Shown: positions 16,824 to 20,325, counted from the first letter of the stretch. The stretch: DNA of 64,000 nt from Opitutales bacterium (GCA_965197745.1 CBDANS010000007.1:640001-704000), one strand, 5' to 3'. Notes: a model not told the origin generated them from the sequence alone. Translations and numbers: made by a program.

Positions 16824-17881
16824 TCACTCATAAAATCGGTAAACATTAAACTTATTAATAATATTTATGTTTGAAATTAGATAATCTATAATTACTTTGA
16901 CACAAAAAGGGGCTAGGAGAGCTCCTTTTGAACCTAAACCGTTAAAAATGATTATTTGGGGAAATTGCGCATGAGGTCCAATCACGGGCAGGGAATCCGT
17001 CAACGCCGGGCGAACACCCACTTGGTACCCTTTCACCATGAATTTCAATGAGGGGATAAAGGAAAGAAGGCCCTGAATAATTTCGTTTTTCCCGTTCTCG
17101 CTTGGGTGATGATCGAGGGAATGCCAAGAATAAGTGGCACCTGCCATGTAGTGTTTTGCTCCCAATGGGAGAAGCCATTTGCCACGATTCAGGATGGTGT
17201 TGGGATTAAACGGTTCGTCCGATTCGAGTAAAAGCACTTCACCCCTGGCGGGTTTGAAAGGTAAATCCTTAAACCAGGGATTCTTGAGAACTTGAAAACC
17301 TTCACAGAAAATAATTCGTTCAGCTGTCCAATTATTCCAGACAACTTTGCTATTCTCTAATTTTAAATCAGGATAGCAAAATCGAGAACGAATCCGTAAA
17401 CGCTTTTTATCGAGATAGTCACCCAGATCGTTAATCAGTTTTGATATATTGACATAGGCAGCCGGTGTCAGCGTGAAGCTTCCATATGGATCGATGAAGA
17501 TTCCTGGATTCGAATCGGGCTCATGCACGGAATTAATATATTGCATAAATGCCGGCTCTTCCTGCGACTTTTAAATAGCTGAAATTCCTTATCAGTTCCA
17601 ATGAAACGATGCACCAACATTTCATAAAAATAGCGATCGCCAAAAACTGACTCCAGTTGACGATAGAGGGTAGAAGCTTCGGAGTAGAATCGATGGAACT
17701 GCCAGGCGGATGTCAGGCGCTGACCTGTAATGGGATTGATAATGCCCGCGGCGGCGAGTGATGCGGCTCCCGTATGACCATCGTCAACAACCACAAATGA
17801 CGCCCCCCTCTTCAGCAATTGCCAGGCAAGCGAGCTGCCTGCTAACCCCTGACCAACGATAATATAATCTACACTATCCAC
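16824..17881 (-). pseudogene. FAD-dependent oxidoreductase (DAO/glycine oxidase-like), frameshifted near 17560
   Basis: N-half has YIIVGQGLAG and ASLAAAGIINP; C-half has ARGE, GVRP..D.LPVIG and NGLGSKG in another frame. Confidence 0.85.
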
Positions 17882-17895
17882 CTAAATTTAATATA

Positions 17896-18017
17896 AATCT
17901 TCGTCTTCGTCCTCGTTCTCGTCTGCATCCTAAAAAGTCTTCAATTTCTGGCTCTATGAATACTTATAAATAGTAAATTGGGAGATGCTTGTGGATTAAT
18001 TCTGGACGAAGACGAAG
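17896..18017. repeat. ~140 bp MITE-like (TTCGTC)n-ended repeat, left part; interrupted by IS110 and continuing at 19267-19284
   Basis: Rejoined sequence aligns with the intact direct copy at 19339-19475 (GTCTGCATCCTAAAAA...TGGACGA...CGAAGAGGCAGACG). Confidence 0.85.
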
Positions 18018-18025
18018 CAATTGTG

Positions 18026-18958
18026 TCATGAAGCAAGAGCTAATTGATGTTTTTTAAGAAGGGACTGCAGATGAATAAGGAGTTTTCTCATGGCCGCAAC
18101 GAGAGCACATTTGTAAGGCATTCCCCGATCGACTAACCTCTGCACATAAGGTTTGATCACGGGGTTATGTTGAGCCGCGGTGCGAGCAGCCATATAGAGA
18201 CATTTTCTGACTTTGGCACGACCTCCTTTTATCGATCGCTTAGAATGGGTCTTGCCACTGTCACGATTATAGGGAGCCAGACCGGCAAGAGCGACCAACT
18301 GATTGCGGCCCAGATGAGTCATTTCGCTCATATAAGCCAGGAGGGTCCAAGTCGTCACTTCACCGACTCCTTTGACTGAAGCGATAAGTTCGGCTTTCGC
18401 ACGCAGTGGATCATTCTCGTTGATGAGCAATCGCAGCTGTTTGTCGATGCGATCGATTTCGTTCTCAACGAAACGGATCATGCGTTGGATGGAAAGGTGG
18501 ATGCTCTTGGGACTGTTCTGCAAGCGGTTCTTCTCGCGGCCAAGCTGTTCGCTCAGATGATGGCGTCGATCCAGTAAAGCAGTCATCTGTTGCTGTTCGG
18601 GTGTCGGGGGAGCTGTTGGGGACAACTGCTTTTGCTGAGCAAAGCGCAGCAATACCTTGGCATCGATCTTATCGGTCTTTGCACGGATGCCATCGCTCGT
18701 GGCGAAGGCCCGTACGCGCGCAGGATTAATCAGGCACACCACAATCTGCGCTTCATGCAAAGCGCTCAACAAGGCGCGCTCGTAGCCTCCTGTGGCTTCG
18801 CACACCACAAAGGGGGCATCCATCTTTCCTATGGCTTTGAGCAGTTCTTTGAGTCCCGACTTGTCGTTGCTTAGAGCGTAACTTTGCTCTGCACTTTGCA
18901 CTTGCAAGGTGTTTTTGGCTATATCTATGGCGATGAGGGTGTGTTTTTTTTCATTCAT
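18026..18958 (-). CDS. IS110 DEDD recombinase (bridge recombinase)
   Basis: 310 aa; RuvC-like D (IAIDIAK), E (CEATG), D/D (KTDKIDA); Tnp domain GLAPYNRDSGK with putative catalytic Ser; GGRAKVR..LYMAA; VAAMRKLL. Confidence 0.96.
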   Translation of the reverse strand: MNEKKHTLIAIDIAKNTLQVQSAEQSYALSNDKSGLKELLKAIGKMDAPFVVCEATGGYERALLSALHEAQIVVCLINPARVRAFATSDGIRAKTDKIDAKVLLRFAQQKQLSPTAPPTPEQQQMTALLDRRHHLSEQLGREKNRLQNSPKSIHLSIQRMIRFVENEIDRIDKQLRLLINENDPLRAKAELIASVKGVGEVTTWTLLAYMSEMTHLGRNQLVALAGLAPYNRDSGKTHSKRSIKGGRAKVRKCLYMAARTAAQHNPVIKPYVQRLVDRGMPYKCALVAAMRKLLIHLQSLLKKHQLALAS

Positions 18959-19145
18959 GGCTATCTCGGTCTTGTCAAGATGAGCTCGCGGGGGTATAAT
19001 CCGGGCTCTTTCAATTGTTTGAGATTAGCCAGGTTAGATCGGAGGTTCCCAGGCTTCGTCTTGAACTCCGCTAACGCGGGTTCCAGAGGCAGAATGAACT
19101 CTTCCGATTTGCTCCCGGCTCCTCTTATTAGGAGTCGGGAGTTCC
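18958..19145 (-). ncRNA. Predicted bridge RNA (5' stem-loop, target-binding loop, donor-binding loop)
   Basis: Hairpin 19113-19140. TBL stems 19096-19108/19038-19048 and 19063-19083, guides 19085-19093 and 19054-19062. DBL stems 19021-19031/18958-18967 and 18982-19008, guides 19012-19018 and 18971-18975. Confidence 0.88.
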
Positions 19146-19256
19146 TGGCACTCTCAACCGTAGACACTGTTGAAAGCTTTTTCCAGTCCTTCCTCCGACG
19201 TGTTACGATGACCCATTCTCGGAAGGACTCAAAAGGTTGTCTTATCATCGCGGGGT

Positions 19257-19262
19257 AACCTA
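19257..19262 (-). promoter_or_regulatory. Putative -10 box (TAGGTT) of a junction promoter formed on IS110 circularisation
   Basis: In the circle, TTGCTT (18036-18031) lies exactly 17 nt upstream of TAGGTT across the CT core. Confidence 0.55.
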
Positions 19263-19338
19263 CAAGAGGCAGACGCAGACGAAGAGTGTAATATGATATA
19301 TTTGTGGTGGTAAAGGGTAGATATTAATTACCCCCCAT

Positions 19339-19475
19339 TTTCGTCTATGTCCTCGTCTGCGTCTGCATCCTAAAAACCTTCAATTCCCGGCGATTGGAAT
19401 CCTCTCAATAGCGAACCAGAAGATGGTAGTCTGTTGATCCTGGACGAGGTCGAAGAGGCAGACGAAGACGAAGAT
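19339..19475. repeat. Intact ~140 bp (TTCGTC)n-ended MITE-like repeat
   Basis: Inverted ends TTCGTCTATGTCCTCGTC... / ...GAGGCAGACGAAGACGAAG; direct diverged copy of the IS110-interrupted repeat. Confidence 0.85.
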
Positions 19476-19501
19476 TTTATATATTATTTTAACCCGCTTT
19501 C

Positions 19502-19727
19502 TCCAAGCCCCAGCGGGGCGATACATATTTAGCCCATTGCGCAAGCAATGGGTATTGTGATCTACCATCCATTTTCAGAGCCCTGGAAGGTCGACACATA
19601 TAGACTGTCAATCCGGTTTGTGTCGCCCCTCTGGGGCTTTTTTTTTCGTTAATTATTTCCCACAGCTAAAGCTATGGACTATGATTGTTTCACCCCTCCG
19701 GGGTGAAATCAACTGGGTAGACGAAGA
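19502..19727. repeat. ~225 bp self-palindromic REP/BIME-like element, copy 2
   Basis: Reverse-complement copy of 5030-5255, sharing TAGACTGTCAATCCGGTTTGTGTCGCCCC. Confidence 0.85.
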
Positions 19728-19773
19728 GCAAATTATGGAATTCTTCTACTGACGATAAAGAAACATTAGCCGA

Positions 19774-20325
19774 TTACGCATCACCTTTATTTATTCGTTG
19801 GCTGGCTTCTCTATCGAGCATGAGTAAAGCGGCAGGTTCATTGCCGGCAATTTTTAAACTATCACACATATGTCGTGCTATCGTTTCCTCTTCTATCTGT
19901 TCATCGATGAACCACCGGACAAAACTCTTAGTCTGAAAATCGCCAATTTCATCAGCTAATTGATAAATTAAACCGATTTTTTCCGAACCGTGGCACTCTT
20001 GAATCAGAGCTGTTTGGAATACATCGTGAATGCTTGTGTAGGTGTTTGCGGGGGAAGTGATTGGCTTTAAATCGACATTACCATTCCTATCCAAAAGATA
20101 ATCAAAAAATTTCATGGCATGCATATATTCCTCTTCAGCCTGAAATCGAAGCCACTTAGCAAACCCCCGGAACCCCTGACCATCCATCCATGCTGACATC
20201 GACAGGTAATGGTACTGGGCGGTTAATTCCATATTAATCTGTTCGTTAAGAGAGTCCTCTACTTTTTTTGGGACTTTATTATCCAGTTTTTTTCCGCTGG
20301 CTATTTTTGTTTTTTTTGCGCTCAT
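19774..20325 (-). CDS. ftnA: Ferritin (non-heme)
   Basis: LNEQINME..AQYHYLSMS, QAEEEYMHAMK, WFIDEQIEEE. Confidence 0.9.
   Translation of the reverse strand: MSAKKTKIASGKKLDNKVPKKVEDSLNEQINMELTAQYHYLSMSAWMDGQGFRGFAKWLRFQAEEEYMHAMKFFDYLLDRNGNVDLKPITSPANTYTSIHDVFQTALIQECHGSEKIGLIYQLADEIGDFQTKSFVRWFIDEQIEEETIARHMCDSLKIAGNEPAALLMLDREASQRINKGDA

Follow-up and report, generated by a model that had tools for sequence, protein, structure and literature searches.

The 64,000-nucleotide (nt) stretch of Opitutales bacterium DNA analysed here (GCA_965197745.1, CBDANS010000007.1:640001-704000; hereafter the window, from whose first letter positions are counted) carries at 18016-19266, on the minus strand, an element of the IS110 family with one copy of a CT core on each side. 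We found that this element is very probably an intact and recently active insertion sequence of the IS110 group that works as IS621 does, and its sequence places the IS621 layout in what looks like a new natural member. The mechanism class itself is already known, and NCBI already names the protein family “RNA-guided”. A first reading of the window, made without database searches (the sequence-only reading), had proposed a naturally programmed RNA-guided recombinase orthologue with a bridge-RNA layout, and the protein family, the consensus fold of the left end and the covariation of the predicted guides all argue for that proposal.

Read on the minus strand, the left junction consists of TCTGCCT (19273-19267), the CT core (19266-19265) and TGTAGG (19264-19259), and the right junction of CACAATTG (18025-18018), the second CT (18017-18016) and TCGTCTT (18015-18009). 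TCTGCCT (19267-19273) and TCGTCTT (18009-18015) are host DNA and form the left and right halves of the target. A sequence check located the strings quoted in the sequence-only reading at the minus-strand positions it gave. In the genome (4.45 Mb, 7 contigs), four copies match the whole 1,258-nt query at ~100% identity, and searches with the protein and with our own RNA model returned the same four places and none beyond. All four copies show TCTGCCT-CT on the left and CT-TCGTC on the right and diverge just outside: the outer bases on the left are gcg in two copies and gcc in two, and the sixth base of the right half is T in two and C in two. Moreover, a paralogous repeat elsewhere on contig C5 has no insertion and can be aligned with both flanks of one copy (L002), which overlap there by the 2 nt CT. 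Hence, insertion leaves CT on both sides, and the empty site has a single CT. Because of these copy ends and of the overlap at the paralogous empty site, we define the element as 1,247 bp between the cores (19264-18018) plus one CT, that is 1,249 bp, with CT on both sides. The interval 18016-19273 proposed earlier therefore held a real element but took in 7 nt of target. The four copies were also checked for different ends, which would have spoken against that proposal, and were found to share theirs; their identity fits its description of the element as apparently intact.

The two ends differ strongly in size, the left end covering 306 nt (18959-19264) and coding for the bridge RNA according to an 11-family alignment and its consensus fold, while the right end is the 8-nt CACAATTG (18018-18025) between stop codon and core, as read from the sequence and from the comparison of copies. 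In our own reading, the ends TGTAGG... and ...CAATTG are not inverted repeats, and no subterminal inverted repeats are visible. Contigs of four sequencing runs break at the element ends, as a repeat would lead one to expect, and in a run from another organism (X2) one contig with the element leads, past TCTGCCT, into another left flank. As side observations, an element contig of run X6 lacks 7 nt at window position 18890, early in the recombinase gene, a loss that would shift its frame in that organism, and a 62-nt stretch (L005, C7:1372248-1372309), preceded by TGCCT-CT and with 81% identity to the beginning of the left end, is probably the remnant of a related element.

The recombinase gene (18026-18958, minus strand) encodes a protein of 310 amino acids (aa) that matches Pfam DEDD_Tnp_IS110 (PF01548, E 2.4e-23) and Transposase_20 (PF02371, E 2.6e-19), and that scores 209.6 bits against a cut-off of 140 with the NCBIfam model NF033542, “IS110 family RNA-guided transposase”. 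Among solved structures, it matches only the transposases of ISCro4 (E 2.7e-38) and IS621 (E 6.7e-38). Residues D12, E54, D96, D99 and S234-G235 align to D11, E60, D102, D105 and S241-G242 of IS621, which are the catalytic residues named in the IS621 structure paper. These Pfam matches and the residue-by-residue alignment bear out the earlier claim that the DEDD residues and the serine of the SG pair are kept. None of the four copies has an interrupted recombinase open reading frame (ORF), and each keeps the full catalytic set. More than 6,000 relatives were found, the closest of which is 90% identical and unnamed; together with the lack of a matching Rfam family, this agrees with the suggestion that the present member may be uncharacterised.

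By comparing 26 aligned homologues, we observed that the four acidic residues are invariant (26/26), while the position of the catalytic serine holds threonine in seven and arginine in one (P0004). Among 110 loci in which the motif could be located, 23 likewise have threonine at this position (L017-L028, L030, L033, L037, L042, L044, L048, L055, L108, L116, L129 and L159); the proteins that bear it are P0029, P0034, P0041, P0043, P0056, P0062 and P0071. The threonine families include ones with 10 (the family of L018) and 3 identical copies in one genome, which are therefore apparently active, and a threonine in place of the catalytic serine in such relatives may interest enzymologists.

We then compared the left end with those of relatives, drawing on 79 loci of species genomes, nearly all from Opitutales or other Verrucomicrobiota, and on 80 loci from metagenomes. 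The ends could be read clearly in multi-copy families: CT-TGTAGG marks the left one, ACA(A/G)TTG-CT the right one, and the sequences flanking them vary widely. When the whole left end was aligned for 11 families, the consensus fold showed three 5' hairpins followed by two stem-loops with large internal loops. The hairpins lie at 19180-19234 (columns 33-116 of the consensus fold, with compensatory changes), 19150-19177 (columns 119-152) and 19112-19141 (columns 161-193, with changes on both sides in most pairs), all on the minus strand like the features that follow. The predicted target-binding stem-loop (19037-19110), outlined by the consensus fold and the pair counts, comprises an outer stem, an internal loop and an inner hairpin (19083-19063), and the predicted donor-binding stem-loop (18959-19030) comprises the outer stem GGCU.AUCUC / GAGAU.AGCC and an inner hairpin (19008-18982). 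As the sequence-only reading had it, the recombinase ATG is where the outer stem of the donor loop finishes; the two internal loops that it described are also found in the consensus fold, whereas its single 5' hairpin has to be replaced by three conserved ones. When the 3' half was folded alone, 29 pairs in five helices were obtained and the four guide segments were left unpaired.

A covariance model built from this 29-pair alignment of the 3' half, with matches taken at E ≤ 0.01, gave 59 genome matches in 58 of the 84 sources searched, located upstream of the relatives, and recognised 77 of the 80 metagenome loci. A search of this kind had been proposed as a check, and our own model does recover the RNA in both sets of relatives; a scan of 17500-19800 against Rfam returned no family on the left end at E ≤ 1, and Rfam 15 may hold no bridge RNA model. 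In the genome set (59 sequences, 34 distinct), standard pairs occupy 94.1% of cells against 75.6 ± 0.9 in shuffled alignments, with changes on both sides in 22 of the 29 pairs, and pairing falls to 28-43% when the partner is slid by 1-3 columns. The corresponding values in the metagenome set (77 sequences, 60 distinct) are 94.8% against 84.2 ± 0.4, 18 of 29 pairs and 30-44%. In neither set did any of 500 shuffles reach the observed pairing and both-side changes.

The internal loops of the consensus fold contain four candidate guides. First, the left target guide UCUGCCUCU (19085-19093, where the sequence check reads TCTGCCTCT) repeats the top strand of the left target and core, so that it would pair with the bottom strand; it matches at 9/9 positions in all four copies and co-varies with the left flank across families. 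Second, the right target guide AAGACGAAG (19054-19062) is the complement of the core and right target, with 9/9 matches in two copies and 8/9 in two, and across families the core and ~5 right-hand nt typically match or co-vary. Third, the left donor guide ACAAUUG (19012-19018; ACAATTG in DNA) equals the last 7 nt of the right end at 7/7 positions, and reads ACAGUUG in families whose right end is ACAGTTG. Fourth, the right donor guide UCU-UG-ACAAG (18971-18980) is predicted to pair discontiguously with CTTGT-AGG of the left end, in a helix of 8 pairs interrupted by a 2-nt bulge (positions 1-8 with 330-339 of the full-length consensus fold). The strings proposed earlier for the first loop, with 9/9 matches each, are confirmed by the sequence and by flank covariation. 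In the second loop, ACAATTG holds at 7/7 and ACAAG does lie at 18975-18971, but the guide is longer than ACAAG (UCU..ACAAG), because the 8 bases at the very start of the left end pair in the fold with the 3' side of this loop, the guide there encountering its own DNA counterpart. The second loop matches the two ends that would abut in an excised circle, ACAATTG-CT-TGTAGG. With the first loop matching the insertion site and the second the element's own ends, the claim that this member has its own target and donor specificity is supported.

The guides and flanks of the relatives change together. A left flank CGCATGT-CT goes with a loop reading CGCATGTCT, a left flank GCCGTGG-CT with GCCGTGGCT, and in a family with the right flank CT-CACTA the loop reads the complement of CTCACTA. 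For counting, we scored 7 non-core positions on the left (best of three registers, real and shuffled pairings alike) and 6 non-core positions on the right, leaving out families without recognisable ends, those with gapped guides in the genome set and those whose 5' loop is not 12 nt in the metagenome set. In the genome set, the left guide matched at 107 of 119 positions in 17 families (53.3 ± 5.0 when shuffled) and the right guide at 83 of 120 in 20 families (36.7 ± 5.3). The metagenome set gave 246 of 287 positions in 41 families for the left guide, against 144.6 ± 6.9, and 217 of 276 in 46 families for the right guide, against 121.3 ± 7.3. None of 20,000 shuffles reached the observed value in any of the four comparisons. 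This covariation, which the sequence-only reading had suggested looking for in homologues, was therefore found for both target guides in both sets. As other families show changes at these loop positions that go with their flanks, the matches between loop and flank exceed what chance pairing of these sequences would give.

The natural target, TCTGCCT-CT-TCGTC(T/C)T, represents one form of a hexamer-repeat arm (TCTTCG / TCTGCC ...), of which the left target half is a part. This arm belongs to a palindromic element of ~155 nt, similar to repetitive extragenic palindromes (REP), that is dispersed through the genome and whose inverted arms are hexamer arrays (TCTTCG, TCTGCC, TCTACG ...); hundreds of arms are present in the genome. 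The REP-like element is found in the window at ~19265-19286 with 17897-18015 and at ~19337-19476, and on contig C5 near 465,500. Since the target is a variant of such a dispersed arm, the genome offers many potential sites: the 14-mer TCTGCCTCTTCGTC occurs 16 times as an exact empty copy and at 199 places within ≤2 mismatches, and a near-perfect empty site lies only 180 nt from the element (~19449-19462).

Such an abundant target could lead one to suspect that the matches between loops and flanks are leftovers of target DNA, or chance similarity to the hexamer repeat, and that the protein alone picks the site. Short matches are indeed easy to obtain in a repeat family with 199 sites that differ by no more than two mismatches. 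However, families with unrelated targets (CGCATGT-CT-CACTA, GCCGTGG-CT-ACAGC and CCAAAAT-CT-TACGA) carry matching sequence at the same loop positions, shuffled guide/flank pairings never reach the observed score, and compensatory changes have kept the stems that surround the loops, so that we consider this explanation extremely unlikely. It is also very unlikely that we are dealing with dead copies multiplied, without transposition, through duplication of the repeats around them or homologous recombination between those repeats. Every copy does lie in repeated DNA, and two of them, L003 and L004, share ~85-96 nt of right flank (from C7:1407530 and C7:2016487 onward), a short repeat of a second kind, before diverging. 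Yet this shared stretch stops after ~96 nt, past the target motif the copies part ways, on the left in all four and on the right in L001 and L002, and another run holds the element with a different flank. The open recombinase ORF with its full catalytic set in four copies, and the precise insertion at CT relative to the empty paralogue, also speak for transposition. Finally, the DEDD transposase superfamily is shared with elements of the IS1111 type, in which the guide RNA (seekRNA) lies downstream of the transposase gene. We give practically no credence to this assignment and rejected it on the anatomy of the element: the core follows the stop codon after just 8 nt, the gene is preceded by the structured RNA with its two loops, and the ends have no visible subterminal inverted repeats.

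An element working as IS621 does would, by analogy with its family, excise as a circle; the bridge RNA would then join circle and target within a recombinase tetramer, and strand exchange at the CT core through a phosphoserine intermediate would leave CT on both sides. For such RNA-dependent recombination, the four identical copies and the changed flank in run X2 are indirect signs only. The junction of the circle might also create a promoter present only in this form, with TTGCTT (18031-18036, minus strand) as a possible -35 element and TAGGTT (19262-19257) 17 nt away across the junction.

Several observations weigh against this picture. No circle junction was seen in the assembled contigs of the four runs, which cannot show rare forms, and no RNA sequencing run is listed as holding the element. 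The would-be junction promoter is weak, since TTGCTT-17 nt-TAGGTT agrees with the sigma-70 consensus at 6/12 positions in our own reading; the same spacing is found in six relatives, at only 7-8/12. There is also no sigma-70 promoter on the sense strand of the integrated left end, where the sole match is antisense. Regarding the RNA, the two bases after the left donor guide do not match the CT core, and both covariance alignments were fitted to the structure of the model and hence lean towards it. The internal loops, in which the guides had been predicted to lie, show only in the consensus fold and not cleanly in the single-sequence fold, whose minimum-energy form (z = -3.1) partly pairs the target loop with itself. 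As for the covariation counts, the families are related and not independent, so that the shuffle counts are not probabilities; the left-guide score is the best of three registers, though shuffles were scored alike, and the counts exclude families whose ends could not be recognised or whose loops had other lengths.

The contigs of the four runs also contain no empty site at the window locus. Two joints in run X6 were rejected as repeat artefacts, their sides being only 21-23 nt long and within hexamer repeats; contig depth was not taken as copy number. The antisense promoter-like match (TTGTCA-17 nt-TATAAT, 11/12 to sigma-70) lies within the donor loop at 18972-19000 on the plus strand; the closest relative has it too (as TATACT), the L018 type does not, and one such match is found where one is expected by chance.

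Compared with IS621 of Escherichia coli (PDB 8wt6), the element has the same CT core, a DEDD and serine catalytic set that aligns residue for residue, and an RNA upstream of the gene with the target loop preceding the donor loop. According to the IS621 papers, left guides that repeat the top strand and right guides complementary to it (PMC11208160), a discontiguous right donor guide and insertion into repeated palindromic elements are further shared features. In contrast, the protein sequences are distant (E 6.7e-38) and the target and donor sequences are the element's own. Going by the same papers, the recombinase of 310 aa compares with 326 residues in IS621, the left end of 306 nt and three 5' hairpins with 191 bp and one 5' stem-loop, and the right end of 8 nt with ~100 bp (a 298-bp junction minus 191). 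The donor string that the sequence-only reading ascribed to IS621 (ACAGTAT-CT-TGTA type) was not found in the portion of the IS621 paper text that was searched. The ISCro4 transposase (PDB 9t56) is the best structural relative by sequence (E 2.7e-38) and has the same domain order, in a longer chain of 341 residues; this comparison concerns the protein only. Beyond these, published abstracts describe ISPpu9 and ISPpu10 of Pseudomonas putida as IS110-family elements that insert into many-copy repeated extragenic or intergenic sequences, in another host phylum and with other targets, ISPpu9 having a small RNA gene downstream of its transposase that is absent here. The IS1111 group belongs to the same transposase superfamily and also chooses its sites by RNA, but has subterminal inverted repeats, which the IS110 type lacks.

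A further feature of the left end is an open frame of 95 codons (18961-19248, minus strand), putatively translated, that spans the whole bridge-RNA region. The frame opens with an ATG at 19248, at position 17 of the left end counted from the core, and closes with a TAG at 18963-18961 that leaves 2 nt to the recombinase ATG, while the other two frames of this left end hold 9 and 4 stops. In the 11-family alignment, the same frame is open from an ATG at the same place in 9 families, with insertions of 27, 6 and 3 nt. When letters were permuted within alignment columns, which keeps conservation, the open frame had 1 stop against 9.3 ± 2.3 in shuffles, none of 2,000 being as low, whereas frames 1 and 2 had the numbers expected (53 against 49.7 and 56 against 54.8). 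A frame without stops is present in 14 of the 24 distinct left ends of the genome set, including all 6 of those found in at least two identical copies, and 13 left ends have an ORF that starts with an ATG at positions 15-22 and stops at -8, -6, -5 or +1 of the recombinase ATG. The frame is free of stops in 24 of 53 left ends of the metagenome set, where other frames average 4.9 stops; 21 ORFs from that ATG reach the recombinase start and 16 of these end in an overlapping ATGA. In many of these the left end is ~90 nt (30 codons) longer, and the frame is still open. Separately, in P0012 (426 aa) and L098 the upstream frame runs without a stop into the recombinase, which gives an N-terminally extended product.

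We rejected the idea that this frame encodes a conserved peptide. Substitutions at codon positions 1 to 3 (0.336, 0.361 and 0.335; permutation p 0.64) reveal no codon-position bias, so that only the avoidance of stops remains; in these alignments an open frame, and not a peptide, appears to be what is selected for. The predicted product has no Pfam match, and only 6 called proteins of this type, all close relatives, are found among 5.8 billion. About half of the families have no stop-free frame, and the clustering of stops at the recombinase start is partly due to conserved sequence there, which has stops in two frames. Distant families (32-43% identity) show no clear open frame, a weak comparison as their ends are unmapped. 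Literature searches returned nothing on a translated or leaderless bridge-RNA region, and “open reading frame” and “mRNA” are absent from the text of PMC13626964, supplements being outside the scope of both searches. A stop-free frame over the RNA is likewise not mentioned in the searched portions of the IS621 papers, a comparison that concerns their text and not the IS621 DNA.

We tentatively propose, as a possibility that we hold to be less probable than its converse, that in this verrucomicrobial clade the left end would be both bridge RNA and translated leader, with selection keeping the passage of ribosomes and not the peptide. A frame of 93-130 codons would start at the ATG 17 nt into the left end and pass all hairpins and both guide loops, to stop 2-5 nt before the recombinase ATG or overlap it (ATGA). 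As this first ATG lies 8 nt past the -10-like TAGGTT of the would-be circle-only promoter, the transcript could be leaderless. The start codon of the recombinase would lie hidden in the basal stem of the donor loop, so that the protein could be made only once a ribosome had passed along the RNA and opened its fold. Any one transcript would thus act as guide or as message, and guide sequences would be barred from containing in-frame stop codons.

Around the element, two overlapping minus-strand ORFs (16824-17546 and 17468-17881) share one FAD-dependent oxidoreductase (ThiO/MnmC-like) between them, an arrangement that points to a frameshift. In a contig of another organism's run, an additional G follows 17563. 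On the other side, at 19506-19552 (minus strand), the Acido-Lenti-1 RNA motif (RF01687) was matched at 33.2 bits, just below the cut-off of 37. This motif has 10 matches in the genome, 4 of them above the cut-off, and 0 in 14 control genomes, and the stretch that contains it is itself repeated with variants in the contigs.

Taken together, the element is a compact natural orthologue, with a recombinase of 310 aa and almost no right end, and the ~60 related natural pairs of guide and target from one clade could help to work out guide rules. The mechanism itself is not new, and the stop-free frame across the guide RNA is possibly the new point. If the left end is indeed translated, one transcript would be shared by guide and message, recombinase synthesis would be tied to the excised form, and the “programmable” loops would be under a coding constraint.

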